DNA of 63,854 nt, counting the filler, from Dugesia japonica (lineage: Eukaryota), in assembly GCA_001938525.1 (NCBI GenBank). It is 5 parts of 5 records of this genome, joined end to end, with 100 filler letters (N's around TTAATTAATTAA, not from the genome) between each part and the next. Parts side by side here need not be neighbours in the genome. Positions count along the whole stretch, not along the records: positions 22,476 to 31,537 come from MQRL01571071.1; 4 more parts are not named here. The stretch is one strand, 5' to 3'. This document shows positions 94-53,924 of this stretch, piece by piece. Position 1 is the first letter of the stretch. Every line of letters begins with the position of its first letter. The translations under genes and the position numbers were made by a program. The notes under the pieces are model-generated. The model saw nothing but the letters and a program-made list of their open reading frames with translations. It was not told the DNA's origin and did not search any database.

Positions 94-1000
94 TTATTTG
101 TTATTTGTTTGCATTGTTTGTGTTTTTATGAAAAACTTTGTTTCATTTTGTCTGTTGAATGTTACGTGTTTTGTTTGTTTGGGTATAGGATATGGTTTCA
201 TTCTTCTTAAATTAACTTTCGTTTCCTTGTCGTTTATGATGAAGATAGCGATATTTTTGTCGATTTTTAGGAGTTTGTCTGGACCTGAATATTTTGATTC
301 GAAGCATGTTGTAAAAGGAATTTTTACTAATGCATAGTTAGTTGTGAGCACTGTTTTGTTTTGTGGTTCGATTTTGTTTTGTTTAAAAGTGCTCATTAAT
401 TCTCTTGGTTTAGCTTCATTATCGGCATTTGCTTTTTTTCTGTGTTAATTGTTTTGTTTTATTTTAGATTAGGAATCAGTGTTTGTTTTCCCCATACCAT
501 TTGGCTTGGGCTATGATTGTTGATTGAGTTTGGGTTATTGCGTAACCCTATCAATATTTGTNGTAATTTCTCGAGCCATGTTCTGTCGTTAGCGATTGTA
601 CGNAGACTTTGTTTTAATGTTNTGTGCAATCTTTCTATCTTCCCGTTACATTGTGGGTTGTATGCAGTCGTTCTGCTCTTTTTTGTGTTGTATTTGGTGC
701 ACCAATTCTTGAACAGTTCGTACTCGAATAGTCTACCTTGATCAGTTATTAGTGTTTTTTGTTGTCCGTATCGAGCGAACCAGTTTAGTTCAATATTTTT
801 GTTGCAGATATTTCTTTTAGTGGTAGTACTTCGAACCAGTTTGTTTTTCTGTCGATTATCGTAAGTAGGTATTTGTATCCGTCGTTTGGTGGTAATGGTC
901 CCACTATATCTACATGTATGACTTCGAATACCTTGCTACTGGGGAAATTGACTTTTTCTGTTTTAATATTTTTTGTTGGGACAACCGGGGTGTATGATAT
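94..1000 (-). mobile_element. Ty3/gypsy integrase fragment (degraded)
   Basis: Minus-strand translation gives FEVIHVDIVGPLPPNDGYKYLLTIIDRKTNWFEV, LITDQGRLFE, TTAYNPQCNGKIERLH (rve D-D-E core) and a C-terminal ESKYSGP (GPY/F-like). Frameshifted. Confidence 0.9.
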
Positions 1001-2350: not shown

Positions 2351-3109
2351 AAATAGATTGGAAAAGCAATTTCAGTGCGGGAACCAAAGTGAAAATAAAA
2401 AGTGAAATCAAAATAATAGATAAAGATTCTTGTATATATTCCTATCTAAAGAATGTTGCAAAGTTTCAAAAATTCTTATTTTCGACGATAAATATAAATA
2501 ATTTTCAAATTAATTCGTTCCAGTTGATTGGATATAATCTTCTAAAATGAATGTATGTATTGTTGATATGAGATATATTTGTATCATTTTGATAAAAATA
2601 TAAATTTGATTTAATTCAATTCTTGATTCTAACTAATTAAACTATAAGTTTGTTATCATAATCTTTTATATTCTAACTATTCATGATTATTATATTATTA
2701 TTATTCCATAAATTCTGGATTTATAGTTGATAATGAATTTTCATTGCTATATTTAATAATGTTCATTAACTGTTTATTCGATAGAGAAAGATACTATTAT
2801 GATATGAAAGGAAAAACAGCGGGAGAATAATTCATAACAGTGAACAAATCTGTAATATCTTGAAATGACAACAATAAAGAAATTAGCGATTATTCTTTGT
2901 CCTATTAAGTTGAAAATAAAGTCATGCACTCTCGGTTTAGTCTTGAATGATGAATGAGCCGGTACCTGCTTAAAGTGAACGACCATAATAGTAAGAATGA
3001 TTTAATAAATGTGAAATTGTTTTTTAAAGAAAACCATGCTCAAATTTATTACCGTTTTTGACAATCATATTTTACAAATTTAATGATCATGATTAAAACC
3101 TTGTTATGA

Positions 3110-4340
3110 AGACGTCACGCCCGATCAAGCTAAGAGAAGCCGAAAAGAGTTTGAGTGACGACAGTTGGAGTTTCCGAACAAATACACCGAATGACATGCC
3201 GAATCTGTGGGACTTACTGGGCCTGGAATACTGATACCAAACTCTGGTGGGTTATGCATGGTAAGTTGAAATAGAAGGAAGATTATATACTAACATTGGA
3301 AAAAAGGATATCTCAACAAGAATGACAAAACACAGAGAAATTGGAAAGACCCGGTAGCTTGCGAAAGCGCATTGATAATCAGAAGCAATTATACGATCAA
3401 CAACTGACAACTTTTGTAGTAAAGCAAGAAGAACGGGTAAAGGAATTAGTAAGGCTGCTCATCCGAGCAGTGGAAGTCTCTAAGCAACAAGAGCATTTAA
3501 TTAAGACAATGAGACCCGCTCAACTCAAAGCACTAAATTATACGAAATGTTATCCTCAATGATCGAGACGGTGCTCCAACAGATACTTAGTCCTATGGAT
3601 GATAATATTATTACTATTAAAACGACAGTGTGATTGTCTAAATTTGACAATATAATATTTCTCTTAGTCATTTTGTTCTTTATAAAATTAAGATGCTAAT
3701 ATAAAAAAATTTTAGTTTTGAAATCAATTATGAATTCCTTATTAATGCGATAATTAAATTAAACATTCAAATATTCTACCAATAGATTGTCTAATTATTA
3801 TTCAGTATCTAATGCAAAAAAAATCACAGAAAGCACCTCAATAGCAGATCTTACAAAAAAATCAAGTTTAATGAACCAAAACTCGAGACGGAGATAACCA
3901 AGCTACAACAAAAGAAAACAAGGTTAAAAAATCGACAGATCAAGTTCAAACAAAGACATTTGACGCTGACACAAACCAGCAGAATGATGGCTAATATAAT
4001 TAAGTCATACACCGATCGAGAAAGCATACTCATCACGACGGTTCATACATTAAGTCAAACAATGAAGTAAAATAAAGCAGTTGGAAGAGTTGGGAGTAAT
4101 TAACTTATTGATCCAGACAGGTAGCCAACCATGTGTTAATAAATGTTATTTACTAATTGCCTTACGGTTTTTTATTCATATAAAATTTTGATGGAATGAG
4201 ATACAAAACTGTAGAGACAAAAAAATAAATTGAAAACACAAAACGGGATACCGCATAGTCTCGAATAGACTCGGGTAGATCATCCAACAAATGGAGTGTT
4301 GCTAAATTTCTGACGGCTTTAGGATATCTACCCCTGAAAG
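3110..4340 (+). pseudogene. Unassigned spliced helical-protein family, copy A (probably retroelement/LTR-derived)
   Basis: GC-richer exon-like blocks separated by AT-rich gaps. Block ~3845-4066 encodes EITKLQQKKTRLKNR...NIIKSYTDRESILITTVHTLSQTM and ends at a GTAA donor (4067). Aligns to peptides at 27.1-27.3 kb and 59.6-59.8 kb. Confidence 0.55.
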
Positions 4341-9842: not shown

Positions 9843-11260
9843 AGATCAAGTTGATGCAGTTAGAAGTTACGCAAGAGTTACAAATCGAAATTATCAGAAA
9901 CCGGTAAATCATACAGAGAATAGACATGTGGAGCAAAGAAAGGAAAAACAAAATATCGAATGTTGGTTATGTCATGAGATTGGTCATACTAAAGCAAATC
10001 GTCCGATATGAAAAGAGGTAGGGTGCTGGAGTTCTCATAAAACAGGACATAAAAGTCGAGATTGTCCAAATAAAAAACCAACAAAATGTTTTAGTTGTGG
10101 AAAGGTTGCAAAAAGTGAGTTGTAAACGATATGGTAATGGTGGACATAAAGAAAGTTGGTGGAAGAGTGCTATACAAATTTGAAAGCGAAAAGAACAAAT
10201 GAGAAATTTATGACCAAGATCAAGAAACCGATATAATCGAGTATATGCGATTGAAGATGAAGATGTCAGTACAAACGATGGAGATACTGACGATGGAAAA
10301 GTATATGAAAGTAATTCTAAAAGGCAGTACCCAAAAGACAGGGCTCCACTAGTAGAGGAGTTGGTTGTTAAATGAAGTTAGAAATTATTCTCAAGGGGTC
10401 GAAAAGTGGGATGATATAGGAAAAGTTACAGAAAAAGTAAACAGGTTCTTAAAGAGGGAAACTTTGTGTATGATAGAAAAGTAGATTGGGTTGAAAAAGT
10501 TGAAGCAGAAAAGAAAACAAATATTTTGTACCATAAATTGCAAGGCAGACTAAGGGATACGGTATCAATTCAAGGAAATAAAATCGAATGTCTATTAGAT
10601 ACATGGGCTCAAATTAACGTGATGAGTTTGAGTTGTTTCAATAAATTACGAGAAGTAAATTTAGAAATGAGAGATGAAAGATTGAGTTGTGCACTTGAAA
10701 TTGTTGGGAAAATTAGAACTGGAGTGATAATTGTTAAGAGTTTCTGAAAATTTTAAGAGTTTCTTAGTTTCTGAAAGAGTAACACCAGATTTGATGAATA
10801 GATATGCAGAAGATGTTTTGATACCAGCTTATGCGAAAAATCGATAACAAAACGGTTTAAAAAAGTCAAAATTTCCATTTGCAATATTGATGCAAAATTT
10901 GGAAGACAAATAAAAACTTTATTGCGATTGAGAAGAGCTTTAAATATTTTGAAGATTAAAGAGGATCAACGGTTATTGAAAATAATTGAAAGTAAAAAAG
11001 ATCTGTCAAGACACAAAATAATCACAAGTGGTGAACCAATCAATGTTAAACCGTATAGACAACCAATGAACTTAGAATCTNNNNNNNNNNNNNNNNNNNN
11101 NNNNNNNNNNNNNNNNNNNNNNNNNNNNNNTAGAATCTAAAATTGAAGAAGCTATCCAAAACCTTTTCGAGAATAATATTATCCGGAAATGCAACTCTCC
11201 ATGGGATACCCCATTGAAGTGTGTTTTGACAAAAGAAAAGAAAGACAATAACCTCTCTGT
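9843..11260 (+). mobile_element. Ty3/gypsy gag-protease-RT fragment (degraded)
   Basis: Zinc knuckles CWLCHEIGHTKAN, CWSSHKTGHKSRDC and CFSCGK; protease CLLDTWAQINVMS; RT N-terminus HKIITSGEPINVKPYRQP...IIRKCNSPWDTP. Confidence 0.9.
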
Positions 11261-19495: not shown

Positions 19496-19859
19496 CTAAA
19501 AATTTTTTATTAAATATTTAAATAGTTTATTTTAAAAATGAAATGTTAAAGCCTTCTAAAAGGCAATTATCAAAATTATGAAAACAATCATTTAAATATT
19601 AATATATTTGAATGTTATAGAATCAATTATTTTATTGTATCAATAATATTTATTAATAAAACTTGTTTTAAAAAATATAAAAACAGAAACTTTAAGACAT
19701 TATTCATTATATCAAAATGAAGATGATAGAAACTCTTACTATGGAAAATGCATCTACACTACAAAATACTACACTAACAAAATACTACAAGTATGAGATG
19801 GTGCTCTTTAAGGGAGCAATCAATTATGCTTTACAAGTGCAGTCTGAACAAACTAATGC

Positions 19860-20345
19860 TGAAATATTTCTCAACAAGACCGTATAAAACACATGGTATT
19901 GATGATTTATGACAAATTGATTTGATGAAAATTATCCCATATTCCAGAATCAATAAAGGTTACAAGTATAATTAAACATGTATCGATGTATTCAGTACNN
20001 NNNNNNNNNNNNNNNNNNNNNNNNNNNNNNNNNNNNNNNNNNNNNNNNNNNNNNNNNNNNNNNNNNNNNNNNNNNNNNNNNNNNNNNNNNNNNNNNNNNN
20101 NNNNNNNNNNNNNNNNNNNNNNNNNNNNNNNNTTATTAATAAACTCGAAATTAACTATTATTCTGCATTTTAACAAAAAAAAGCAGCTTATGTTGAAAGA
20201 TTTAATCAAACATTAAGAGATGCATGCTGGTAATAAAACATGGATTCATTTATTACCAAAAACAATAGACATTTATAATCATACAATCCATAAAGGATTA
20301 AAAAGAACAAAACCCGTTGATGTATGCTCTGACAATTCAACGAAA
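19860..20345 (+). mobile_element. Polinton-type retroviral-like integrase fragment
   Basis: KYFSTRPYKTHGIDDL*QIDL...NKGYKY..TCIDVFS and, after the gap, KKAAYVERFNQTLR...WIHLLPKTIDIYNHTIHKGL..KPVDV. Confidence 0.85.
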
Positions 20346-20639
20346 TTATGACTATTGAAAAAAAACTAAAATCAACCAAAAACAATATATAAAAAGCTAT
20401 AAAATACGAAGTTCACTTTTCAATAATTTCAATATCAAATCAATAATTCTATCGATAAACAGTAAATACCGAGAAAAAAATAGTCGGGACTTAAAAATAA
20501 TGATTATAGTACCTTATTTATATGCAATGCATAGTTAGAAATATGGGATATCTAAACAAGAATATGAATTGTGGAATAACCTTTAAAGATTTTCGGTATA
20601 AACATTCCTTCTTTACATTTATGTTTGCTCCTGATATTT

Positions 20640-21200
20640 ATATTTTGAAGTTGATATGTTAATACCTGATAAATTACATGATTACTTAAGTGACTTACTA
20701 TTGCTGCTGAACTTAAAACTAGGTACAAAAATTTTAAAAATTATTATTAATACATCACCGTAAGAAAAACAATGTAATACATTGGAGGTTACTTCAATTG
20801 TATTTATAAATAGGGATTAAAGTGACGAAAATTCATAGGGCTGTAAAGTTTGAACAAGATTATATCTTTAAGGCTTATGTAGATGGAAACACTGCATTAA
20901 GTTCTGATATTAAAATTGAGTTAGAAAAAAATTATTATAAGTTGCTCAACAATAGTCTTAACTTTTATTAATTAACTTAATTAACTTTTGTTAATTAAAT
21001 TAACTTTTTTTTTGTAATTCTGCAAAAAAACTTGTAACCTATACAACGACTTGATTGCTGTCCAGCTTAATGGGGAAATTATTTTTTTGGATAATCCGAA
21101 TTTTAGTGGGCAATCTGTATTATATTTGTCTAAACTCATGATGTATCAACCTCAGTATATTGAATTAGAAAAAAACCGTAAGGAAGAGAATTGTTCTAGA
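20640..21200 (+). mobile_element. Polinton/adintovirus-type PolB polymerase-domain fragment
   Basis: EVDMLIPDKLHDYLSDL, KVTKIHRAVKFEQ, EKNYYKLLNNSL and VLYLSKLMMY; a diverged homolog of 22.6-23.2 kb. Confidence 0.88.
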
Positions 21201-21244
21201 ATTATTGTAAAAATTTAAACAAACATCATTAATTTCACTTAAAC

Positions 21245-21560
21245 AAAACCTTAATTCCGTATTTTGTAGGGTTCGAGCAATTTAATAGATTGGTTATTAT
21301 AATATTAAAATTTAAATTTGCTTTAAAGACATCAAATGAATTATATTTCAATATTGTTTATAGTTATGAATGTAATGGGTGTTTTCTCAGATAAACTGGA
21401 AAAATTTTCTATTATCTCTACACAAAAATTCAGGAACATCGTTATATGAGTATTCGAAGTAATATTGTTGAACATGATTATAAAGTTATTTTAAACTTCA
21501 TATATAAAGCATGTTGCATAACAGGTCAATGTTTGTTTACTGATTGAGCTAAGTTAATTG
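21245..21560 (+). mobile_element. Penelope-like GIY-YIG endonuclease remnant
   Basis: IPYFVG...NIVYSYECNGCFLR*TGKI...LYTKIQEH....SNIVEH matches VVY...C..C...YIGKT...L..R..EH. Confidence 0.75.
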
Positions 21561-22375
21561 CTCAAATCATAATTACAAATATATTTATTATTCCTTTTGT
21601 TGGGGTTTTACCCTTTTTATGTCAATGATTTATGTGATTAAATCTAGGGGGTCGATCTTTATATAAAGTCAAAATCTAGGGTCATTGATCTGGTAAAAAC
21701 CCCGCGATGAATTTAAATTTGGTGTCCCCAAAAAATCCAGATCTTCGGAATGAAGCCGTTGACTCGTAGCTCGAGTACAGACTCGCATTCCTTTAGTTCG
21801 GGTTCGTTCACATGATANTCGCTTAATTTTCTAATCACAATTAGCTTTTACAATTATTCGTTAATAATTATCCGTTATCCTATAATTGATTATAATGTTA
21901 ATAACTATTTAAAAATAGGAAAAAACAAAAAATTTTGTAAGTGAACAATATATTATGATTTAAATTTTCACTGCGGATACAATAATTTAACATTTAACAT
22001 AATTAACATAACTAACGTAGCCTGGATCCCGATCTGGAGCAAGCACGACATTTAGATTGCGGATTAATGATTTGAGGAGTCCATCATGCATGTTTCTTCT
22101 CGAGTCGGAAATCGTTACACCATGAATTATGGAAAAAATAATCACCTTTGTGAAAAAAGAATATTTCAGGTCTACCCAATATTTGTCTGGTTAGAAAAGT
22201 GTTAAAAATTGTGAAATTTTCATCGGTATTTATACCGATTTTTTCTACGCCCCCGTTTATTTTATTGGCGAATATAAATTATAGACGTTTTTATTGACCA
22301 TATGGTTACATGCTTTCTTTTTATTGGTGGTTATTTTTGGATTTTGAAACTATTGGCCAACCTTCAAACCCTCAT

Positions 22376-22475
22376 NNNNNNNNNNNNNNNNNNNNNNNNN
22401 NNNNNNNNNNNNNNNNNNNTTAATTAATTAANNNNNNNNNNNNNNNNNNNNNNNNNNNNNNNNNNNNNNNNNNNN
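22376..22475. other. Artificial contig-join spacer
   Basis: 44 N + TTAATTAATTAA + 44 N. Confidence 0.95.
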
Positions 22476-23843
22476 CTTTAAATGAACCCATTGAGCTTTT
22501 AACCGACAATGATATGTACACTTTCTTTGAAGGTGGAATTAGAGGAGGTTTTACTTTTGTCAATAAGCACTATGTGGCAACATATGATAATACTGGAAAA
22601 ACTTCTTGTTGATTGTAGGACTTTAGACTTAGATTCACTATCTTATGGTTATAGCGTTGAAGTTGATCTGTTGATTCTTAACAATTTACATAACTACTTA
22701 AGTGATTTACTAGTTGCTGCTGAACAACAAATTGTACCAGGTACAAAATTTAAAAAATTACTACTNNNNNNNNNNNNNNNNNNNNNNNNNNNNNNNNNNN
22801 NNNNNNNNNNNNNNNNNNNNNNNNNNNNNNNNNNNNNNNNNNNNNNNNNNNNNNNNNNNNNNNNNNNNNNNNNNNNNNNNNNNNNNNNNNNNNNNNNNNN
22901 NNNNNNNNNNNNNNNNGAAAGTAAAAATGAGTTAGATAAAAATTATTATAAACTACTCAATAATAGTCTTTATGGTAAGACTGTTGAAATCTTAAGAAGA
23001 AAATGAATCTCCGTATCTGTAACTCTGACAAAAAGTTGGTGACCTATACTTCCAAACCGAGTTTTAGGAAAACATTCAAAATTGATAAGGTTCTGATTGC
23101 TGTTCAACTTAATGAAGATTTTATTTGTTTTGACCGTCCAAGTTATATTGGACATTCTGTACTTGATTTATCTAAGCTTAAAATGTATCAGCTTCAGTAT
23201 ATTGACTTTGAAAAATATCGTAAGAAAGAGAAATAATGTATTAATATTGTTGCAGGGGATATAGACAGCTTCTTTCTAGAGGTTAAAGATATTAAATTAG
23301 AGAAATTGTTAGGTTTGCTGGTGAGAGATAATCTTCTTGACACATCAAATTATGCTAAAAATTATCCACTTTATAGCGATAAATTAAATTCTGTTGTAGG
23401 GAAATTTAAAGACGAATCCAAAGGCATAAGGTATAAGGAATGAATTTTCCTGCGACCAAAATGTTACAGTCTTCTTAGCAAAAAAAACTTCTTTGAAGGC
23501 TAAGGGTGTAACATTAAATGGTACTGGCATAAATCATCAGTCATACCTTGATTGTTTTAATAATAATCGAAAGGTCTCAGTAAATCAATTTAGGATTTTT
23601 ANNNNNNNNNNNNNNNNNNNNNNNNNNNNNNNNNNNNNNNNNNNNNNNNNNAAAGGTCTCAGTAAATCAATTTAGGATTTTTAGTAAAGACCACACAATA
23701 TATAGTTCAAACAATTCAAATGTAGTATTAACAAACACAGACGATAAACGAGTATGGGTAGAACAGAATAGAAGTTTACCATAAGGACATTGTGATATAC
23801 CACCTTGTAGTGAAGACGAATCAGAATCAAATCAGACATTGTA
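22476..23843 (+). mobile_element. Polinton/adintovirus-type PolB C-terminal half (pseudogenised)
   Basis: IELLTDNDMYTFFEGGIRGG, YKLLNNSLYGKTVE (motif B), PSYIGHSVLDLSKLKMY, AGDIDSFF (motif C), DTSNY, GKFKDES, LRPKCYS, KAKGV and DDKRVW; stops and frameshifts present. Confidence 0.93.
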
Positions 23844-23999
23844 AGGTAGTGAATTTGTTATTTATTAAATTTAAATTAATTTATTTTTTCAGTATTTTGA
23901 AAGAAATCAATAATGAAACATCAGATAGAATAATCAGATTTTTCATTAAATAAATGTTAGTTTTGAAACTGACTTTATCTTATTATTTTATTGTTTTTT

Positions 24000-24960
24000 A
24001 ATGTTAAGTAAATAAATACTTGTTTTTCAATATAACTTTTTATCTATAAGGTTTCTTGATTTTTAAATACATTTTGCCTACTCAACTTTAAATTCTCTAT
24101 CTAATTGATACCTTGATGTTTGAATTTGAGATACCATTTCTAAATTTCATAATTTCCTCCCAAACTCCCAAAAATTAAGTACATGTTTTTTCTATTAACC
24201 TTTTTATCTATAAGATTTGATGATTTTAGATTTACATATTTGGAATCAGTGAAAGATTCTATATCGAATAGATACCTCTTTGAGATACATTTTTAATTTT
24301 CGAAAAAATGACACCAAAATCTGGGAGGGCGCTGAACATATTCGTTAGAAAGCATTTTTCCCGAGACGATATTGGAACTTTGCATAGTCACTTTTTTCTC
24401 CTGAGTAAAATAATACCAAATTTGAATCGATAGCAGTTCTCTGTGCACAGAGATCTGACTACTAATATCCGAGTTTTGAGATTTTTTCACCACAAAATCT
24501 TTTTCATTTCATCAAGTATTGACTTTGGCAATTTTAGGTTAACATATTTGGAATCAACAAAAATGTCTCTATAGAATAGACTCTTGTTTAACTTATTTGA
24601 GAAGAAATATTTTTTCGAAAACTTTTTAATTGTGAGAAATGATCGCCATAAAATTTTAAGCAGTTTGATATGAAAATCTTTGAAATCTGATATATAGAAC
24701 ATATTTTTTGAAAATTTTAGACTGTTCATTCGAATTCCCAAAGAAATTTGATTTAAAAATTTTAAATTTTCATATTTCTTAAACAACATGAACGTTTAAC
24801 CAATTTCCTATAAAAAATTCTCATTAAAAATTTTCTCCAACTAAAAAGCGTATAAAAAGTATTACCGCCTAAATACATAGTAAATATTTTGCCAATTAAA
24901 ATCAATAGAAAAATTTAAAAACAGTTACCACTTAAAAAGCCTAAAAGATTTTCCTAACTA
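24000..24960 (-). mobile_element. Probable Polinton PolB ORF start/N-terminal extension, degraded
   Basis: MLFKKYENLKFLNQ and its upstream DNA are homologous to the ORF start near 12449 (MLLKYYENLKLLNQ), which leads into PolB motifs. Contains an internal DSKYVNLK repeat. Confidence 0.55.
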
Positions 24961-26746
24961 AATAGATAGGAAAAACAGTTAATCCTATTACATAAAATTT
25001 CACCGATGAAATTAATCTCATGACATAATTTGTGTGCAAAATTTGTTCGCCGCCTTTTTACATTAGAAAAGTTTAAAAACAGTTATGCAATAATTGTCGC
25101 GACAAGATTAATTACATTATGTAACGCACACAAATATGTGCCGCCGCCTATTTACATTAGAAAAATTTAAAAACAGTTATGTCATAATCCGATTACGTTG
25201 GAGGGGGAGGTACTGGATATGTGCTGTTCTTTACTGCCACTATCTATCTTCTTTCAGATGTCCTGTGATCTTACTTTTCTACATGCGATTCTTAAATCGA
25301 ATTAGGAATGAACTATCCAGTATACTATGGAGTGTGATAGTTAATTCATTACAATTTCTTCCTCTCATGCAGTTAACCACTACACATTTAAGTCAACATC
25401 TTGTTCGTGTGTATATGAGAAAATTTTGCATCGATGAGAGTAATATTAGCAACCAAGGTAACCAGTAAGGCCAATAATTAAAACTGGTTTTCCACCACGT
25501 CATCGGTTATTTAAAATAAACGGATTTTCTTTAGAGATGTTTTTTTTGGTTAATCATTAAGGTCATTACTTAAATCGACATCACCTTTAATCTAATCACG
25601 GAGTTATGTTTTACCAATGTTGCTATTATATTTAGGTACACCCACGTGACTTTTAAGAATAATGCTACTATTATTATTATCATGATAATTTTTTCATTAC
25701 GATTATTAGTAACAAAAGGTGGTACCGTTACTAGTATTTTTGTAATAAACGACCTGTGGACCTGATTGACGTTATTTTCGTAATTATTGTCGTCCACATC
25801 TCGGGAATATTTTATTAAAAACACTGTTAATAATATTACCGTTAGCACTAGTGATAGTATGAACAGCAATTCTATTATTCCTATTAGTATCATTGATACT
25901 GCTGACATTTTTAGTATCCAATCCGTTCCTGTGTATTACTGCTATTATTATTAATTGGATTGGTAATATTATTATCCAAGCTATTTTTTTGTATCATTAC
26001 TATTATTATCATTAAAATTAACAATAATATTGTAGCATTATTATTAATTAATTAATATTAATATTAAATTAAATTAATATTAATTACAATTACTATAATT
26101 ACTTTTTACCAACAATACGACCACCCATAGGTTGGGATAATTCTTAATATCCGTCACCTTAGCACTGTTATGATTCGAGTTATCTTATGACCATTCTCGG
26201 TCTCAATATTGGGATTTTAAGTGCAGTTATAATTAAGGTCGCTTTTTGAGTAGTATCTGTATCTAACACTTTCATTACGAATAACATTATTCCAAGAATT
26301 AAGCGGGTCATTTTTCTTTGTCTTAAGGATAAACGCAGTTAATTCTGTTAATTCCATCTAATAATGTCAGAAGTATTCAAAATTACCCTCAGATTGATCC
26401 GAAAGCAGCGCAAAATCACTTGTCTTAAACAGCTGCTCACCGATATCTTATCGTGAGGCCGAATAGAACACCCCGACTAAACCGATCTATGTTGTTTCGC
26501 TGCAATGTTTGCACTTGATCTAAGGGTGGACTTAGACGAGGAATGATCCTCTCGAATATTTTGTAATTCATAATAAAACCTTTTGCACTTAAGTAATATG
26601 ATGCTGTTTTAATGTAAACAGTATTTATCCAAGTTAATTCAGTTACTTATTATAGCAACGTTATTAAATAATTAAACGGATAGTAAAGTAATTTAGTACA
26701 TTTAGATTTTTATGATTTTGATGTTATTAAATTTTCGTTATTAGAG

Positions 26747-27850
26747 ATGGACCACGTATGGGAAACCCGTCTCAATGGACAAACAAATAAAGTCGTATTT
26801 AAGCGCTATCATAATCCGCATGACCGAAATGCAGGAGTGATGCAAGACCACTACAATCTACCGCCTCTCATCACTGATAACGAGCGGGAGTGGGACGCCT
26901 TCGAACGGAACGCGTACTACGTACTCCATAAATATAATTGTGTAACCTAAATATTTTTTAAAAGTTCTTGTTTTACTCTAATGCATTCGTCATTAAATAG
27001 ATCACAGGCTCCGAACAAGAAGTTAAGAGAGTCCAGTGAGCATACAGAGCTAACTTGGGATCTTTATAAGCTCGCGAAACGCCATTGGGAAGCGGATACC
27101 GCGTCTGCCAAAGCCGAGGTTAGACGCTATAAGAAGAGGTGTCTCAATATTTTAGGCAGAGGCAGAGCATCCCAGAATCACGAGACGGTCTGGAAAGCAC
27201 AAGTCAAATCCTTTACCGAGATCATACGGTCCTACCAAGACCGAAAAAATAAATTGGTCGACGATATTCTGAAATTAGGAAAGGCTATGGCACTCGCCCC
27301 TCTCCTAATAGATAAAAGAAATTCAGACGATTTACTCATAAACTCACCTAATTTTTTATTTGAAATAATAAATCATTTCTTTCTAACTCCATTTTTCATG
27401 CAATTTGCTTATCCTAATTTTAATATATCTTCTGTTTTAATGAACCGAATACCTTCTAATTTAGTGCCTCGAATTACCTTTCCGAATAGTTTGAAGAGAT
27501 GTCACCGAATAATGCGTCGCCTGTTACTAGAAAGACATCTTAAGCGTCAAACAGATCGTTCCCTCTTGAAGAATCTTGTTCAGCACGACCAGTTGATAAA
27601 AAAATTAGATTTGGTGATTAAAAAACAGAATGACCTGGCAATCCAAAAAAATACCAGGAAGAACAGACTAAACAACTGTTACAGAGGAAGATCGATTTTC
27701 TCAAACAGTATATCTCTGACCTATTGCGTCAACTGGGTAAGCCAACGTGGGGGCAGTGGGACGATAGTTATGACTAAGCGTCCTTTGATTTTTTGGTTAC
27801 TGATCCGGCCCAGTGGCTAGACCTTGGGGCTCTGGATGAACTGTAATTAA
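26747..27850 (+). CDS. Unassigned spliced helical-protein family, copy B, upstream of a PBS (putatively LTR-encoded)
   Basis: ORF 26747-26941 joins in frame to 27008 via GTAACC...ACAG (66 nt). Contains EVRRYKKR...EIIRSYQDRKNKLVDDILKLGKAM, homologous to copies A and C. Confidence 0.5.
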
Positions 27851-28102
27851 GGAAATCAAATGTAGTCATTATTGATGTTTTGATGAGTTTATTTGATAAA
27901 ATAATAAGGGAAAATAAGGAATCCTAAATAAAGGTGTGCGAGTGCGAACCTCCCGTAAAGGTCGAGGGTCAACCGCTCTACACCGAAGATCTAACTTAGG
28001 GGCATTAGATTTAAATTTTTGAAGGGGTATCCCTGATGGCTGTTTTTTCCTCGGCCATTTTTTTGTTTGCCATCAACTCAGGTGGGACCCCAACAAGAAT
28101 TT

Positions 28103-28116
28103 TGGGGGCTCAGCCG
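28103..28116 (+). promoter_or_regulatory. Primer-binding site, tRNA-Pro-like
   Basis: TGGGGGCTCAGCCG versus the tRNA-Pro PBS TGGGGGCTCGTCCG (12/14); 7 nt after ...CCCCAACA (28095), a plausible LTR end. Confidence 0.7.
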
Positions 28117-28439
28117 TTATTTGAATAAAAGTTTTCATGAAACAAAACTCTGTAAGAGTTGTGAAATAAAATAATAAAAAATATTATTAACAATAATTAT
28201 TAAATGAATAATTAATATGGAAATAAATAAAGTATCAAATAATAAAATTAAGAAATTTATTATCTAAATAACTGATTATGAAACAGGAAGTTGTATGTTG
28301 ATACTGATATTAAGGTAACTATAGGAAATAATAAATAGGAAGGAAGAAAGTAATCGGATTAAATTTAGGAAATAAAATCAATGAAAATTGTTATTTTATA
28401 TTTTCAGTGATCATGTCTAGATATCCACAGAATTCATCA

Positions 28440-29200
28440 CGGAAACTCTCAAAAAGGAAGATAAATTGAAGGAAGATAAATAAAAGGAAGATAAATTAAA
28501 GGAAGTTTATTAGGAAAAAAATAAAGGAAGCTAATCTTGAAGAAAATTTAAGGAAGATAATAAGAAGAATATCCAGTTATACTTATTACGGACACAGTTA
28601 TGGAAAATAGGGATCACCAACTGATAAGTTGAAATCAGAAGATTGATCACCTTTGTAGAAAGCAACCACAACAGTTGCCTAATAACTGTAACTGAAGAAG
28701 AAATTAGGTATTATTGGATATCTTATGCACGCATATTTATGAAAGACTACGCGAAGCCCTAAGTACATTAACCAGTATGTTAACGGAAGACCATGTAGGA
28801 AGGAAGCATAATTAAGCAAGCCTGCGTATGGTAGGGAAAACCCCGGAAGAAATTAAAGGAAGCCTACGCAAGGAAGGAAGATACGTGAAGTCCTAAGCAC
28901 ATTAACCAGTATGATAAAGGAAGGCCACGTAGTAAGCACACTATAGGAAACCTGATTAGAAGAAGAATTAAAGGAAGCCTGAAGCGTTCGGCTGTACATA
29001 AAAGGGTACTCCAAATGTGGCCGCCGATCCCTCAGAAAACGTTTGGTACTCTCCCATAAATTTAGGAAAAGTTTGCATGTTACCCTGGCATTTAAAGGAA
29101 GAAATTAAGGAAGCATTACAGGAAGATTAAAGGAATACTTAATTAAGGAAATTTAAAGGAAGCTCAAAAGAAGACTTAATTAAGGGATATAAAAAGGAAT
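28440..29200 (+). repeat. GGAAG-rich repeated leader between the PBS and gag
   Basis: Many AAGGAAG motifs on one strand; duplicated unit GAAG(C/T)CCTAAG(T/C)ACATTAACCAGTATG at ~28752 and ~28887. Confidence 0.8.
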
Positions 29201-29289
29201 AAGTTAAGTAAAATGGTTGAGGAATTGTGATGACAAATGTAGAGCAGCATGATTTAAAGTAAGTTTAAAATCAGGAAGAGGAGTGATTG

Positions 29290-31196
29290 TCTCCTACGTA
29301 AAGACCATTAGTAGTAAATTTTATTCTAGAGAAATTAAAACTACAAGATATCACAAAACCCAAAACCGAAATACAATAAACAACCAACAAGCCAGACTCT
29401 AACAAAATAGATTCCGGCCCCGAAAATAGAAAATCAGTTTCACGATCTAACTTAACCGGATTATCCACTACAAGTTTAGTTCTAAGAGAAACCCAACTTA
29501 CTTGACACAGGTCATCAAGACAGAAAAAGAAATCGTCATTATATTTGGATCCTGAAGAGAACATTTGCTCTCTCAAGAAACAGGAATTCGACAAACTATC
29601 CCTAGAAACTATCAGTTCAAACAGTAGCCCGAGCGATAAAGAAAATAAATCCATTCTGAAAGCAGCACCGAGTAAAACCCCAGTGGATATTAACAGATCA
29701 AGTGGACTAAGTTATACTTCAGAGGAATCGGATATGATCGAATCAATAATCAACAATCAGGAAAATACAGATTTGTTGTTGGTAAAAACAGGCCACACAG
29801 GGAACAAAATAACCCCATCAATAAATGAAAATAGGAAAATAGAATTTAATCTCATAAAAGACAAAAACATAACAGCCAAAACTGAAAATCAACGACTAGA
29901 ATGGAAAATAAAATTTGATGGCGAACATTTTAGTGGAATACCAAACAAATTAGACGAATTTATCCAAAATTATGAAATGTATGCCAAAACCTGCGGATGG
30001 GATAATGAGGCTAAGAGAAAACGGTTACCAGCATACTTAACAGAAGTAGCCAAAACTGTGTTTTGGGATCACACTAAGGGCATGGAAGCCATTTCCGAGA
30101 CATAGGAAGCAATAGTGAAAATATTGACCGATAATTTCCAAAATTTAAAACTGACGGGTCAGGATTTCGAACAATTCATCAACCAAAAACAACAACGACG
30201 AGAAACCCCACAAGCTTATATGATGGAACTCAAGAGACGAGGCAAATTGGCGCTGGGAGACAAATTAGAGGAAAGTCAAGTGTTGGCTATATTACTAAAT
30301 GTATTAAGAGACGAAAGCGCCAAACTAATGGTAAAACTAAGTAAGCTAGCAACTTTGCATGACGCATTGGCAACGTAGCGAATTGTGGCGGATAGACGAT
30401 CATAACGAGTATTCAAAGTAGAAGGACAAACATAGGAAGCTACACCACGGATATCAAATTTCATACCCAATACACATTCGCTGATAAAAACCCTGACTCC
30501 AGGGCAAGAACGGAACAATAGGAATGATAGATCTAACTACTTCAGAGGAAATGAAGAAGGATTTAATGCACCACGAAATAATTGGCAAAATAACCAGGAT
30601 ATACAATGTAATTATTGTAGAAGACGAAGACAAATAGCCAAGGACTGTAGGAGTAGAAGCAATAATAATAACAATAACCGATTTTGTTCGTACTGCAAGA
30701 AAACCAACCACAATGTAGAAACTTGTTTTCTGAAAACCCAACGGTCTGTTATAAATATAATAGAATAGGTCAAATGGCAAAGGAATGTCCAAATGTAAAC
30801 CAAACAAATTGTTATCGGAATCCGAAGACCAACCTCGATAACTTGATGCATGAAAATGAGAGATTACAACCACGGGTAAACCAAAACAAGGGACAAAATG
30901 ATTGGTTTAAATGGCAAAATCAAGATATGCCAGTACAGCAGAAAAGGTAAGCGAAGAGGAGCCTGCTCAATGAACTACATACGAATCAGTGCAATATGAT
31001 CCTAACCCATAGGCAAATTTATAACCAACACGACGAAACTACGGAGGTAACTGAAATGGAAGACACCAGAAAACGAATAATAATTACATCACCGGAATTC
31101 GAATGGACTAATGAAATTATTTATAAAACCATCGAAGCATCAACAACTGTTACTGGAAGAAGACAAGTAATGAATCAAATGCTCAGGTTGTATTAA
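29290..31196 (+). mobile_element. LTR retrotransposon gag (long N-terminus, three knuckles, in-frame stops)
   Basis: FSGIPNKLDEFIQNYEMYAKTCGWDNEAKRKRLPAYLTEVAK and QKQQRRETPQAYMMEL; knuckles CNYCRRRRQIAKDC, CSYCKKTNHNVETC and CYKYNRIGQMAKEC. Confidence 0.88.
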
Positions 31197-31212
31197 CACC
31201 CACAAGGTTGTC

Positions 31213-31537
31213 ACATATGAAATGTCCGATTTTAGAACTCTTTTTTTAAACATATATATTTTTATGTAATATTTACCATTTAGAACTTATTTATATATCT
31301 TTTTGAAGGTGGAATTTTTGATTATCATTATATATTATTTGTTTTCAAAATATATTTATTTAAATTACTTTTAGACAGCATGGAACACAAGCTAAGAAAT
31401 ACGTAATGCAAACATTATTTTTATATGAATGAAAATTAAAGCATAACCCAACAGAACCTGCATGAAACATTAATTTTGCATTTGGAGAGGGTTCAGCTAA
31501 TGAAAGAACTCTTTGAAGATGGTTCGACAAATTTCAA
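31213..31537 (+). mobile_element. mariner 5' end (TIR and HTH region of transposase)
   Basis: TIR-like AGGTTGTCACATATGAAATGTCCGATTT; TLFLYE*KLKHNPTEPA*NINFAFGEGSANERTL*RWFDKF is a typical mariner HTH. Confidence 0.88.
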
Positions 31538-37793: not shown

Positions 37794-38358
37794 CCCATCA
37801 AATTGACGCGTTACCAATTTTATGCTTAAAAATTCTGAACATGCAAATATTATTCCTTGGACCATGGGTGGGCAACACGAGGCCCGCGGGTTGCATAATT
37901 ATTTGAAAATATTTTGGCCCGCGAGATTCATCGCACTTTTACAAAATAAATATTTCACTATATATTTTTTATATTTCATTTTTAGTGTTATATATTATTT
38001 TACAATGTTCGTTTAATATCATTATTATTATATTATCTATGTTTACATGTAAGAATAATAGTAAACACAATAATAATAACTCATTATGTTATAATTTTTC
38101 ACACCAAAAAAAGTCTATAGATTTAGACTCTAAATCTAATGTGGTTAAATTTTATATAAGGCCCGCGGAGTTATGATGCACTTTCAAAGTGGCCCTTAAG
38201 ATCATTTGGGTTGGTCACCCATGCCTTAGACATTACATATTGATTTTTAATGATATAATGCAGCAAATATATATTTCTACTTGCTATCTCTGGAGCATCT
38301 ATATTTCATTATTTCTAGATGTTGTATACCTATTACGAAAATCTGTCAATTTGATGGG
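37794..38358. mobile_element. piggyBac-type MITE
   Basis: TIRs CCCATCAAATTGAC / GTCAATTTGATGGG; flanks ATAA / TTAA. Confidence 0.85.
37863..38223. mobile_element. hAT MITE nested in the piggyBac MITE
   Basis: TIRs CATGGGTGGGCAAC / GTTGGTCACCCATG, subterminal GGCCCGCG motifs, 8-bp TSD CCTTGGAC / CCTTAGAC. Confidence 0.9.
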
Positions 38359-38769
38359 TTAATTTATATAGATTAATTACTGAGAAATAAAAAAACTGAA
38401 ATATCAATGAATACGAAAAAACAAAACCAAGCAAATGACGGCTGTTTAGTAATAAATACATGAACAAACAAGTTTCAACGAGTTATTTACAATTGTGGCA
38501 TGATAGCAAATAAGTACTTCAAAGGTGAACTTTGCAGAGAAAAGAAGTGATTTTTGAAAGTGAAGCTGCCTTTATTATTTTATAAAACCAGTAAATCCAC
38601 GTGAAAAATAATTTCAATAATGCGTTAAATAAAAAAATAAAAAAGCTATTTGAAAGCTAACCAAAAATTTATTTTCATAAGTTAAGATTTGAATTTTTCA
38701 AGGCATTTTCAAAACCTATCTAAAAATATATTTTATTACATTTATATTTTCCCTATTTGGCTAAATGTA

Positions 38770-40526
38770 TTATGGACAAGTCTCCAAAAGATATGGAATT
38801 GATAAAAAGAATAACCAGCATAAATAAAGACCAATGTACATCGGATTTTGATATAAACAAATTATGCACAAAGGAAGGAAGAATTTGACAATACCAACTA
38901 AATGGATTCAGACGACAGTAAAAACAATAATTATTGCAATACATACCCTAAAAGAAAATGAATGCGTATTATTTCAGATACTGAAATACCNNNNNNNNNN
39001 NNNNNNNNNNNNNNNNNNNNNNNNNNNNNNNNNNNNNNNNNNNNNNNNNNNNNNNNNNNNNNNNNNNNNNNNNNNNNNNNNNNNNNNNNNNNNNNNNNNN
39101 NNNNNNNNNNNNNNNNNNNNNNNNNNNNNNNNNNNNCTAAATCAGACAAAACGTTTTTGATTATGACAGACAAAACGATTTAAATAGTAACCAGTAATTA
39201 ATTATAAAGAGCTCCGTTTTTTAATTAATAAAATGAGAACAATCATCAAACCTTTCGTCAGTCAACTACCAAAAACGATGAAATTTTATAAAAACATGTA
39301 AAAGCAGAGTTTGTAAAAGAGTTGATTTTGATACTAGATTGTAAGACTAGATGAAATAGTCTGCTTACTATGATGGAACGATTCTTTTTACTAATAAGCT
39401 GCATTCAAAAATCAATTATAGATTTGAAATTGACAATCAGTTTCTCTGACTATGAATATATCATCGTTTCATCGGCTANTTCTTCTCTAGTTCCTGTTAA
39501 AGTAGCGGTTAAACTATTGTGTCGCAGTAATACTAATTTGATTACGACTGACGCTACATTTAAACTTTTATTCCATGAACTTCAAAAGTAAAATACACCA
39601 ATAGCTACTGAATTATTAAACGTAATAAAGAAACGTATTTACGAGCGTCGCACCGAAATTTCGGGTATTATTCAATATTTAAATCATGCATTTGAAGTAA
39701 ATAAAGAAACGTGCACACCAGATGGCCAAGAAAAGTTTTCATTTCCAAAACTCACCAAAACTGTGATACTCGAATTCTTACGAAGAAAGGTCATCCAACG
39801 CCCAACTAAAACTCAAATTCTTGTTGAATATAGAACAAGAATACGATTGATTTAATGTAAAAGAGAACGCTAGTAACGAAAATAGTGATGAAGACTATAA
39901 TGATTGTGAAGTTCAAGAAATTAAAGAACACTAGAACCAATTTGGAAATCTTAGTATGAAGGAACTACTTTATCAGGCTATATAAAAAGAAGTAAATTAT
40001 ATGATTTCCGGAAAGAAAACAAAGAAAATCCCAGATAATTCTAATCTTTTAAAAAAGAAATGGCGTTGTTTGAAGAAGGAACACGGGGCAAATATATTCA
40101 ACAAATTTATGATGTTGTATTGTCAAGCTGTTTTACAAGTGTTGAGGCTGAAAGAGTATTTTAAGTTACAGGTAAAATCTGTAAGAAATTTCAAACAAAC
40201 TTGAACGATGAGTAAATTGATGCTTTGTGTTTCCTGCGAACTTATTTTAAAACAATTAAAAATATTAAGAACTAAAGCGCTTATTTAATTTGTGGTGCTA
40301 TATAGTTTTTGTATTTTTCTATTACAATATATTATTTGCTCATGAGTTAAGAATGAAATAAATTTGTTATATTGAAAGAAAATATGAAATAAAGTTCAAT
40401 AATTTAATCCTCCGAATTCTTTTTTGAAGTATCAAATTTTTGGTATTGAAAACCGGGATACCGGTTTTGGTTCCGTAGAAACCGAAATACCGGTTTTCAA
40501 AATTCCTTCTTGTTTTGCACTCCCTA
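38770..40526 (+). mobile_element. hAT transposon, degraded transposase and right end
   Basis: LILDCKTR*NSLLTMMERF, PVKVAVKLLCR and TSVEAERVF...LNDE*IDALCFLRTYF (hATC). The terminus has ATACCGGTTTT subrepeats and ends ...CTCCCTA. Confidence 0.88.
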
Positions 40527-40549
40527 GTTGGCATCACACTTTATAAGTC

Positions 40550-40750
40550 AATATCTAATAAATGCTCTACTATATTTAGGAAAAGATGAAAAATGATAAA
40601 CAGACATTCTTTTGGGCGAATGTGTCGTGCTCAAGATTGTTGAACTATATGTATGCTTTGGCTGAAATATAACTACTGACAGCTTCTTCATAAGAATTTT
40701 CCTTGCTAAAAAGTTGCTTGAAAAAACAACTCTCGCGGAAAGTGTATATC
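40550..40750 (+). mobile_element. piggyBac transposase fragment
   Basis: YLINALLYLGKDE...LGECVVLKIVELY...NITTDSFF....AKKLLEK matches the region around the piggyBac D(N)FF catalytic aspartate. Confidence 0.8.
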
Positions 40751-42375
40751 CAAGATAGAGTTTACATGTACAAAATGTATTGATAAAAACCTATATATTG
40801 TAAAGAAATAATTTACAAAAAAATATTATTTTAATATACCCGTCAAAAAGTCGAATTTCAGTAAATAAAGGTATATAGTCAATGTCCGTAAATCTAGTAT
40901 TAAACAATGTTTAGATTTATAAAATATTTTACTTTCGTTTTCTTTTTATAGAGTCCTGTCAGCATTTATCGAAATGACCATTACTCATTCTTTTCAATAA
41001 GTTGACTGCCAACATCACGCTAAATACATGGAAATACTACGAGTATATTCGTCGTGGATAGTGTGTTATAAAAAAAACATTTAATTTAATTTTAATATAT
41101 TTCATTAGATAAAAGCTAAATCTATACTTTAAAATGATTTAAAGGAGATATATTTATTATCAATATAATTCGTTCATAAATAAAAAACAAATAATTAACA
41201 CATCTTTATGAATAAATTCGAATCAAAAACTCTTGAAAAATTAAAAACTTATGAAAATCAGACAAGCTTCACAAAATATATGCCTGTCATCCTAATCAAT
41301 TTTATTACAAAAATAATTAATTAATTTTACCATTGATGTTAAATTTATAATAATTTAAAATCATTGAAAAATTTTTTCATATATTTTTTTCAATTCGTTT
41401 ATGTATTGAATAACCTAATATTATTATTATCACCACATAAATGTTTCAGATTAACTCAATCATTTATTTAAACATTTAATTTTAAAGTTAAACAACAAAT
41501 ATTAATCATTCAAATAGATTAGCCGTTTCAAAAAATACTTCATTAGAATTTCTTAAATTTCCCAAATGAAATTGAGTTACATCATATATACAGGATGATT
41601 CAAAAAATTCAAAGGATTTATAATAAGTTTATATTTACGGAAATTGATTTTTGTATGTATTAATAATTAATAAATCAAATCAATTTTTAGAATTTTTATA
41701 TTAAATCCAAATGGTTCCTTAACCTAAGGTAGATATAAGTCATCATATTATTCAAACGATAATACTGTACAATGATACATAAGAAAATCAATTCTATTTG
41801 GTATGCCGTCGTTTGAAAACCGATGTCTCACCAGTTGCTAAAAGAGAGTAGCCAGGAACAAGTCTAACAAGAACAATTGATGTTGCATTTATGTTGTACA
41901 TCAAATAATAATATTTTAAAAGCCTATCAATAGAACAATTAATATAAAAAATTCAAATAATCGATATTTAAACTAAATACTTAGTTTACAATATTCATTA
42001 AAAAATTTTGATAAAAATCGTATAAATACACCAAAAATGATTCATGTATTTTATCTATTCATTCTGTCTGATAATTACTGAATTTGCAAAATTAGTTTTT
42101 CTCTAACAGCGAAAACGTAAAATAGAAATTTTGTATAAATAATTTTCTAAATCTAGAATCTGTTTTTATTTAAATTGAATAATTTTATTTAAAAAATATT
42201 TTATTTTTACTAATTTGATTACATATTACATATTTATTTACATTTTATATATTACATATAAAAATATTTTTTTTGAGATATTATAGCATAAAATTCAGAT
42301 ATTAAATATCTTAAACTGTAAATCATAATTACTATTATTTATTATTGTTATTTATTATAGTTATTTATTATTTTA

Positions 42376-44294: not shown

Positions 44295-44348
<54 letters not shown>

Positions 44349-45657
44349 TTATTGATATCAATCAACAGGTAAAGATAATAATAATATAAACCTCTTTAGA
44401 ATAATAAGTCACCCATAAGAACTTTTGACAACTTTAACAATGACTATAACCATAATAATAAACACAATAATCATAATAATTATAATAAGAATAGTGTTGA
44501 TGATGACAATTAAAAATAAGGGCAACAAATGAATGGTTAATGATTGGGATTATTGATGATAGGATATAATTATAATGGGTGGTTATAAGATTTAATGAGA
44601 TATAATAATATGGGTAAGGATAAGTATGATAATAATGTTAACTTGATGATGATATTAGTGCTAGTCCGCGTAAATGAGAATGATAATCAGAATAATTTTA
44701 AGGATAATAAAGAATTATGAACTAAAAGCTCGATTATTTATCCGACTCGCATCATTAAGAACCTACGACAAACTTAGGAAATTTAATACCAACAAGGATA
44801 ATATTTGCGACAAGATACCAATATACATTTCCTATAAAAACAGTCACTTTGATTGCTAGGCTCGCGATGTTGTCTCTCGAACCAGAGCGAGTATTGTTGA
44901 ATTGGGAACCCGAACCAAAGGAATGTAAGCATGCACTTGAACTACGGGTTACGAGTCACCGGCTCCTTTCTGAAAATCTAGAAAGGGAACACTTAACTAA
45001 ATTCTTCGCGTGTTTCACTAGGCCAGGTTACCCTAGATACAATTGCAAATTCAGCTGACTAGATGGAACCCCAACAATATTAATAAATTAAAATTAATGA
45101 ATTTTTCAATATTTTTGATCGAGTAAGTTTATTTTATGAAAAAATCTAAATTATACTAATACATTTTAATTTCTAGAGAAATTCAAAAATTCAACATTTA
45201 AGAAATTGAGTTAGTATTTAATGTTTAATTAAATCTTTATACAATTTATGTAATTTTTGTGAATGATTGACATTAAGATAGTTTTTAAGTAGATATTCGA
45301 TTATTGATTCAAGAGATTAGTTAACCATGGCAATAAATATCAGAAATATATATGCAAATAACTTAAAATAATTTTCTTTTTTTTTACCGAGCATAATTTT
45401 CTAAATCCATATTTATCAATTTTTTTTTTTTTAAAATAATTTTTACATTTACTTCTCTGTTTCAATGATGTTCAAATCTAGTTTTTTATGGATTGCCTAA
45501 TTTCAAGGAAATGAAACATATACAATTTTATGTATTTTACACTTATGTAGAAAAAGTGGATTTTGCTGATTTAAACACAATTTATTTATTTGTAATAATA
45601 AATTTAACAACATCCATATCATATAAACTTGAACTTTTAATATTCAGTATTTAATTT

Positions 45658-51760: not shown

Positions 51761-53182
51761 ACTTCCGATCGTGTCCGCAGATATCCACCTACTTATACAA
51801 ATAGATAGGANNNNNNNNNNNNNNNNNNNNNNTTACAAATCTACATTTTATAATTTCAAATGCTTTTCGATCGCTCTAAAATTTAGATTCTAAATTAAAT
51901 TGTTGTGAAAAAAGTGGGCCACATTTAACTTTTACCGATAACAAAACTAAAACGTTGAGTGGTAAGTAAAAAAGGCTGACTACACTTGATTTAGACTATA
52001 TTAAGTTTAAAGTGTAAAAAATAGATATAATAAACTTTATTAATTGTTAAAACAAAACAAAAATTTATTTTTTAGCTTATTTTATACAATGTCACTTTAC
52101 AGTCTAATTGTAAAATATATTTTAAACGTAAATGTTGGTGATTAAAAATAAATATTAAAATGAGTTACTGAAAAACTGTTTAAAACCTTGCAGAATTCAC
52201 TGTTCACATTATNNNNNNNNNNNNNNNNNNNNNNNNNNNNNNNNNNNNNNNNNNNNNNNNNNNNNNNNNNNNNNNNNNNNNNNNNNNNNNNNNNNNNNNN
52301 NNNNNNNNNNNNNNNNNNNNNNNNNNNNNNNNNNNNNNNNNNNNNNNTAAAGTAGGCGTGCTGCTTGGAAATTTTATGTTTCATAATGAGCACTGTACTC
52401 ATCTTAACTAACTTCATAAACAGCAGTTGCTAGGTGAAGTTGCATATAGTAGATAAACTAGTGTTTGTTCTCAACAATATCTACTATTTGGACAAGAATT
52501 GGTGAATGGGCAAATGAACAAATTATTTATAAACCTTTCAGGAATTATGAATAGATAATTTTCCCGTTGCTATGATATGTTATTGTACACAAAATTATTT
52601 CATTGAAAACCAGTAAAATATTCTCAATTAATGTCGATATTGTCGATTACATTGTAAAATACAATAGTATCTAATTAACGATATTGCATTGTTTTAAAAA
52701 TCACCAATAAACAACGTTTAAATGACAAATTATTATGAATTATACTGTGATTCGATTAAAAAAANNNNNNNNNNNNNNNNNNNNNNNNNNNNNNNNNNNN
52801 NNNNNNNNNNNNNNNNNNNNNNNNNNNNNNNNNNNNNNNNNNNNNNNNNNNNNNNNNNNNNNNNNNNNNNNNNNNNNNNNNNNNNNNNNNNNNNNNNNNN
52901 NNNNNNNNNNNNNNNNNNNNNNNNNNNNNNNNNNNNNNNNNNNNNNNNNNNNNNNNNNNNNATCCACATATATATCCACCTTATTTTAATAATTAATTTT
53001 GAGTTTTTTCAAATCAAATTCTTTTGATTACAGGTATCGAAAAATCAATGTGAAATAAAAAAACATAGTTATTATATAAATAATTATCGGCAGAATTCAG
53101 TAATGTTTAATAGTTTATCTATTTTTGTAGTATTATAGGAAATAAGGAAATTATTAGAAAGAGTGACTTTAGTATATAAGGG

Positions 53183-53924
53183 TTGCTTGATTTATCATCA
53201 TCAGGTGATGGTGATAAACAACAACTTACATTTGATAAAAAGAATTCTTTTTCAATAGACAGATTGATTGATTCATCATCAATTTGCTATAAACAAATTG
53301 ATGGTGAGCAACAATCTGCTAAGAAAAATATGGAGACGAGAAAACGAAAAAATAAATTTTTGGAAGAAAATGTGGAAAAGGAGAAGAGAAGAAGAATAAC
53401 AACAATTACTGATGAATATGTTAGAAAATCGGATTTTAATGGAGCCTATGTTAGTCTGCAGTTTAAGGTAGAGCAGNGGGAAATGAAAAGTGTTTATGTG
53501 CCTGATTATATCAGAAATAAGGTAGAGGAAGAAGTCGAGAAATTCCAAAACTGTAAAGTTCAATTTGCAATCCATGACGAATTCGAAAAGGAAGGAGATG
53601 AAAATGATCAAGAGAAGGAGATTAAAGAATGGTCATGGTCATATAAAGCCATGGAATATTCAGAAGAGTTTTTACAGAAAATAACGGAAAAAGCAAATGA
53701 AGAAATTGCTACGTATTCCGAATTAAGCAGTGGGTGGAAGATCAAAAGAATACTGGAGTTGAGATTTATTATGGTGAAATTTTCTCCTTTAATTTATCTA
53801 TCTGGACGATCATATATTAAAAGTCCAAAATCATTAGATCAAACAAAAGCTATAGTGAATGTGCACAATATGGACAATATGTGTTTTGTATACAGTATAC
53901 TGGCAGTATTAAAATATGATGTTG
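53183..53924 (+). mobile_element. Polinton/adintovirus-type PolB N-terminal region, open frame truncated by contig end
   Basis: SSGWKIKRILEL...SGRSYIKSPKSL...KAIVNVHNMDNMCFVYSILAVL matches GSGW....I..L...GSSYI.LP......KAIINV.N.DN.CF..SILA.L. Confidence 0.85.

Follow-up and report, generated by a model that had tools for sequence, protein, structure and literature searches.

A decayed, probably spliced protein gene just upstream of the LTR 3' end of a Dugesia japonica Gypsy retrotransposon

The retrotransposon and its surroundings

We analysed a gapped, AT-rich stretch of Dugesia japonica DNA of 63,854 nucleotides (the window; assembly GCA_001938525.1), in which the contig at positions 23652-31537 carries part of an LTR retrotransposon. 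Along the plus strand of this contig lie, in order, a decayed protein gene (26747-27846), a conserved block that forms the 3' end of an LTR (27917-28095), a 9-nt primer binding site (PBS; 28103-28111), an A-rich leader (28112-29200) and a decayed Ty3/Gypsy gag (29218-30790).

The end block finishes in CCCCAACA at 28088-28095, and the PBS, TGGGGGCTC, starts 7 nt after the CA. We take the PBS to be tRNA-Pro-like; no tRNA gene was found in the window. Searches with nhmmer located two relatives of the block, one on the minus strand at 21598-21830 (E = 1.4e-7 over 21697-21830), which may be a 3' or a solo LTR, and one on the plus strand at 44895-45076 (E = 0.0017 over 44896-45009). Both finish in ACCCCAACA, followed by an AT-rich flank that lacks a PBS. 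Because the block recurs with its ends at 21598(-) and 45076(+) and no PBS there, sequence comparison fixes and confirms the LTR 3' end at 28095. The pattern of LTR end plus PBS was met at 106 metagenome loci, none of them related by blastn or tblastn, and an Rfam search of 25200-29500 returned nothing.

The leader is built of tandem and dispersed repeats, among them tandem units of 15 nt and a duplicated stretch of 55 nt. The gag weakly matches the capsid of Drosophila Arc2 (E = 0.01). At ~30607-30790 it has three CCHC knuckles, of which one is canonical and two are degenerate; the third is read in a different frame. From 29506 the gag carries 5 stops in 421 codons. Pfam returned zf-CCHC_5 alone for gag, below the cut-off, and a homolog search with a piece of gag found none. 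By its LTR 3' end, primer site, capsid and knuckles, the sequence points to a Ty3/Gypsy LTR retrotransposon. An earlier, sequence-only reading of this DNA had listed the terminal motif at 28095, the PBS at 28103, a repeat-rich leader and gag, and all were recovered in that order.

Upstream of the gene lies a decayed ATT/AAT-like triplet tract at 25600-26200, where the sequence-only reading had placed it, within single-copy contigs. A similar decayed tract occupies 44295-44750; both lie near LTR-like sequence, in opposite orientation. Homology between the two tracts (25.6-26.2 and 44.3-44.8 kb) was rejected, since 7-12 of 150 triplet shuffles reach the same likeness, and a minus-strand frame of 121 codons at 25570-25935 was discounted because it probably arises from triplet periodicity. 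Further upstream, just before the low-copy region, a very high-copy repeat (23900-25240, summed depth 1e5-1e6) takes most of the X11 RNA reads. A purine run at 25200 was rejected as a polypurine tract because it borders a very high-copy repeat and has no TG after it.

Several other features were noted on the remaining sequence. Gypsy pol-like remnants (integrase, protease, reverse transcriptase) were recognised by eye at 94-935(-), 10400-11130(+) and 62700-63700(-), on contigs other than that of the focal element; a weak protease match falls at 10.4 kb. Decayed frames at 19700-23800 and 53180-53920 resemble, by eye, the protein-primed polymerase of Polinton/Maverick elements, and Pfam gave no match for 53180-53923. 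A host gene at 54900-57400(-), which we take to resemble PNUTS/PPP1R10, combines a weak TFIIS helical-bundle match and a CCCH zinc finger with short, AT-rich introns.

A decayed gene and its relatives

The frame at 26747-27646 has one stop in 300 codons against 18.0 expected, a count as low as which was reached in 0 of 5000 block shuffles; the other two frames contain 26 and 25 stops. The window has no longer stop-free frame. From the ATG at 26747 a single frame runs on to 27820 with its sole stop at 26945, so that a splice joining 26941 to 27008 alone would give 335 aa, ending at 27820. The acidic C-terminal end at 27846 lies in a different frame, entered by a frame change near 27640-27660 and interrupted by a stop at 27775-27777. 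The sequence-only reading had drawn an ORF over 26747-27850; its ATG and coding signal hold, but, given these frames and stops, a product of that extent requires a splice, a frameshift and a read-through, and the ORF does not reach 27850 as one spliced frame.

The gene can be divided into three parts. Candidate exon 1, encoding domain A (26747-26920), has 58 codons and a GC content of 0.49. The open frame at 27008-27646, marked by its stop counts, charges and multi-copy DNA, comprises a basic helical region B, an AT-rich linker (27323-27490), an Arg-rich helix and a predicted coiled coil; its successive stretches contain 0 stops against 6.1, 3.2 (linker) and 3.7 expected. The 3' part (27643-27846), in another frame, encodes predicted coiled coil and an acidic-aromatic tail, with the final stop at 27844-27846. 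Regions B and C are predicted to be helical, with up to 8 Arg/Lys per 20 residues.

The lesions (2 stops and one frameshift in ~366 codons) amount to a decay load similar to that of gag. They belong to the genome and are not assembly errors: X1 contigs show 0 differences across 26038-27139, and across 27602-27979 they are gapless with 1 difference. At the internal stop at 27775-27777 most other copies, as seen in DNA-run contigs, differ. Contigs of 3/3 DNA runs contain a joint that skips ~169 nt of the coiled-coil region (27494-27664); some copies lack this part or carry a replacement for it.

A HMMER search of 1.84 billion representative proteins, with an X at the stop of the query, gave a single match, P0004 (E = 6e-11). 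It is identical to residues 1-58 at 27 of 58 positions (47%), ungapped and from the same start Met. P0004 is a singleton, a 94-aa frame from one 512-nt contig, and matches domain A only; its unrelated tail is what a gene caller reading through an intron would give. For exon 1, this homology speaks more strongly than any other result for past selection on the protein.

No homologs were found for 27008-27817 (148-473 aa searched) or for 27008-27322 (57-184 aa searched), and no relatives were met in metagenome or viral contigs. Pfam gave nothing, or matches below the cut-off, for all gene pieces and for P0004, and a search of PDB sequences gave no match. The ESM Atlas returned no usable match (best 0.82). 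Domain A was modelled as three strands and one helix (beta-beta-beta-alpha) at pLDDT 69; fold searches with this model yielded nothing at E <= 0.001 (best Z 5.2), and a test for an AP2-like fold placed 6sy0_A at rank 13 with Z 4.2 (51 residues aligned at rmsd 3.6), in the range of the background. A single-sequence model of 27008-27646 reached pLDDT 42. The sequence-only reading had recognised no gag, pol or env motif in the product; the Pfam, PDB, ESM Atlas and fold searches all ended without a family or fold.

The stop statistics and the outside homolog P0004 exclude a chance open frame, and 26747-27846 is a real but decayed protein gene of no known family. The stop counts and P0004 likewise uphold the earlier view that a protein gene lies just 5' of the LTR 3' end and PBS.

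Past selection on the protein had been argued previously from two further copies within the window; it is P0004, rather than these two copies, that supports such selection. Their shared motif occurs at three places (27221, 3996 and 59635 on the minus strand) against 0.47 expected, a count to be read with the motif having been chosen after the fact. The copy at 3831-4067(+) is a borderline protein homolog of region B, with no LTR end before the gap. The copy at 59564-59798(-), a decayed frame also lacking an LTR end, resembles the 4-kb copy, with which it shares two collinear pieces in tblastx (E = 0.005), more closely than it resembles the focal gene. In the comparison of region B with the 4-kb copy 9 of 184 shuffles score as well, and in that of the 4-kb with the 59.6-kb copy 6 of 184 do; two other pieces, set against unrelated DNA, reach 11/184 and 6/184. 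The LTR-end block was found at neither 4 kb nor 59.6 kb. As homologs of the focal gene, the two copies are therefore, on these scores, suggestive but borderline. GC-richer, partly open frames lie 5' of them at 3100-3600(+) and 60100-60700(-), with AT-rich spacers, in the manner of small gene rows; neither shows a significant match to the focal gene.

Position of the gene relative to the LTR, and its candidate intron

The gene lies on the same strand as gag, and its stop is ~70 nt 5' of the end block. We consider it likely that the gene sits inside a multi-kilobase LTR, the likeliest reading of the locus. Of the earlier proposal to this effect, the position of the gene directly 5' of the LTR 3' end and PBS stands; against it, the related LTR ends share ~170-230 nt that do not include the gene, and no 5' end has emerged, the best match to the expected LTR start having 4 mismatches in 12.

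An unlikely alternative is a short LTR of ~170-230 nt, with the gene belonging to another coding repeat hit by the insertion, or to an upstream element that shares the LTR and whose internal region would end, on its 3' side, with the gene. The homology of the focal block to its two relatives ends ~170-230 nt before the CA, and upstream of that point the sequences show no relationship, since 75-134 of 150 shuffles reach equal scores. The gene left no trace in 770 nt at the 21-kb relative or in 780 nt at the 45-kb relative. The 45-kb relative begins with TGTTG at 44895, with GTAT before it and ATAT after its CA, and looks like a 182-nt solo LTR. Against a short LTR, the match between the 21-kb and 45-kb relatives extends ~9 nt upstream of the TG, no G-rich purine tract precedes the 27.9-kb block, and no pol lies within the 4.4 kb upstream on the contig. 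The LTRs of Burro, moreover, add >5 kb in total, according to the portion of PMC6431247 that deals with them.

Read depth bears on both readings. Summed over contigs in three DNA runs (a measure that is not a copy number, and in which single-copy contigs have ~5-10), depth is 11/25/14 on 26553-26815, the start of exon 1, which is nearly single-copy; 2669/6430/2689 on 27079-27341 in region B; 1185/2936/1248 on 27605-27867 in the 3' part; and ~38000-41000 on the end block. The 3' two thirds of the gene are therefore multi-copy in 3/3 DNA runs, A and B are ~100-fold apart, and depth rises 14- to 33-fold from the 3' part of the gene to the end-block bin. The last of these jumps favours a short LTR, but depth also falls 80-fold in the first leader bin (457/461/597), which is certainly internal, so depth is a poor boundary marker. 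The depth of 11/25/14 does show that exon 1 is not common to most B-bearing copies at 82% identity.

Within the preferred reading of a gene inside a long LTR, we judge it fairly probable from the sequence that the gene contains an intron. The candidate (26921-27007, plus strand, 87 nt) has GT..AG ends and can be removed without loss of frame; the stop at 26945 lies within it, as does an ATG in frame at 26981. At the GT at 26921 a fall in GC from 0.52 to 0.24 coincides with the end of the P0004 homology, and GC recovers at the AG at 27007; the candidate has a GC content of 0.25 against 0.49 in exon 1. In shortness and AT content it is host-like, the introns of the host gene at 54.9-57.4 kb being ~42-55 nt by eye with 19-29% GC. 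Sixteen in-frame GT..AG pairs of 45-120 nt would remove the stop, so spliceability alone means little. The sequence-only reading had used a donor at 26942 (junction 26941/27008); an intron remains plausible, but the 87-nt form is plausibly to be preferred over the 66-nt 26942-27007, since the GC drop and the protein homology both point to 26921. One RNA run, of which 6% was read, gave no depth on 26290-28130 and no junction read, a weak null that says little because 0 of 159 placed reads were 99% alike. The second AT-rich stretch, the linker at 27323-27490, is stop-free, has an acceptor-like end at 27464 and has no GT in 27259-27433; it is either coding or a second intron.

A row of small intron-less genes in U3 would account for part of these observations: A would be a protein of 66 aa ending at the stop at 26945, B would start from the ATG at 26981, and the sequence at 26.3-26.55 kb would be a dead paralog. 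The match of P0004, itself a 94-aa frame, to A alone, the ~100-fold difference in depth between A and B, the in-frame ATG and the paralog-like motif upstream all suit this arrangement. The putative paralog (26298-26546, plus strand), which has 5 stops in 83 codons and an acidic end, shares a 15-residue match (26406-26450) with the 3' part of the gene; 0 of 300 shuffles reach this match, one of 28 comparisons made, and there is no DNA likeness. With this match, the GC-richer stretch at 26.3-26.6 kb, earlier described as a promoter-like block, may instead be a dead paralog. We nevertheless regard separate genes as rather improbable: A and B share one frame, the homology ends exactly at a GT with a fall in GC that is reversed at an AG, and the tail of P0004 would fit read-through of an intron by a gene caller. 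Very improbable is one continuous intron-less gene in which the stop at 26945 is a lesion or, least likely, no gene at all: the AT-rich stretch has a length divisible by 3 and one stop, the copy carries other lesions and the second AT-rich stretch is stop-free, but the GC contrast with exon 1, GT..AG at both edges and the loss of homology at the edge oppose the former, and the stop counts and P0004 exclude chance.

Comparison with known systems and possible role

Complex retroviruses are known to carry protein genes within their LTRs. The focal gene resembles sag/naf of MMTV in that the latter, as the consulted part of PMC9412291 describes it, is an ORF inside U3, in the LTR, with a U3 promoter; MMTV is, however, a vertebrate betaretrovirus in which no sequence likeness to the focal gene was found, and the focal gene has a probable intron. 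Among Gypsy elements, the closest likeness is to Burro/GYPSM1, which are giant Gypsy-like elements of planarians. The portion of PMC6431247 available describes for Schmidtea Burro a gag with CCHC knuckles, and the shared features are a Gypsy gag with three CCHC-like knuckles, two of them degenerate here, a long leader, accessory ORFs, decayed copies and an AT-rich animal genome. The accessory ORFs named in that portion lie, by contrast, in the internal region or polyprotein, and none is named inside an LTR. Burro is marked by a giant polyprotein in which env stands between gag and pol; the focal contig stops at 31537, short of any pol, env or 3' LTR, so that this copy is a candidate member of the group. 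An eLife table of env-bearing elements has LTR coordinates in 1 of its 9 flatworm rows (863 nt) but in none of the six rows from Schmidtea.

Other Gypsy elements carry extra ORFs 5' of gag or 3' of pol, often without homologs, as in the excerpts on sORF1/sORF2 of the MDG1 group (PMC11952523) and on plant elements including Ogre (PMC7264820, PMC6431247). These lie in the internal region, whereas the focal gene lies 5' of the PBS; its product also has no clear sORF2-like membrane helix (top hydropathy 1.4 over 19 residues). The CERV protein of Cer1 in C. elegans is likewise a Gypsy accessory protein made from spliced RNA, and it exports unspliced Cer1 RNA; the abstract (PMC10309623) does not report that it is LTR-encoded, and a function shared with the focal product is our conjecture. 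The original Burro description (Grohme et al., 2018) aside, the literature searched yielded no Gypsy retrotransposon with a gene in its LTR, and the parts consulted of PMC8532177, PMC11410931, PMC13524379 and 10.64898/2025.12.11.693146 make no mention of one.

On balance, we slightly favour the view that the element is a Burro-like Gypsy retrotransposon whose long 5' LTR holds the decayed gene in its U3, with splicing at 26921-27007 and a product that may have been a nuclear regulator; the gene is a dead accessory gene that is probably both LTR-borne and spliced. Under this model, U3 would be templated by the 3' end of unspliced genomic RNA, so that the gene would be copied into both LTRs and the intron kept. 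Translation would proceed from a spliced subgenomic RNA or from a promoter further up in U3, and related lineages would retain the LTR end but exchange the U3 cargo. Survival of the intron through reverse transcription, raised earlier as a puzzle, ceases to be a paradox because retroviruses and LTR retrotransposons package unspliced RNA, as stated in the abstract of PMC10309623.

More tentatively, the product may be a transactivator or an RNA-export factor, a nuclear regulator of the element, since the modelled beta-beta-beta-alpha domain, the Arg/Lys-rich helices, the predicted coiled coil and the acidic-aromatic tail would fit such a role; none of the searches of protein families, the ESM Atlas or structures returned a match that would support a function.

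The dead state of this copy means that it points to a family and not to a working gene, and its 58-residue domain has one relative among the representative proteins searched. It is conceivable, if doubtful, that giant flatworm-type Gypsy elements use their U3 as a swappable gene cassette, in which intron-containing regulator genes (joining a small, novel domain that binds nucleic acids to a coiled coil and an activation tail) are carried in both LTRs and scattered through the genome, as self-contained genes, by solo LTRs. If the gene is present in both LTRs, each solo LTR would leave behind, in a genome where such elements abound, a gene supplied with promoter and end signals of its own, and the element would regulate itself in the manner of a retrovirus.
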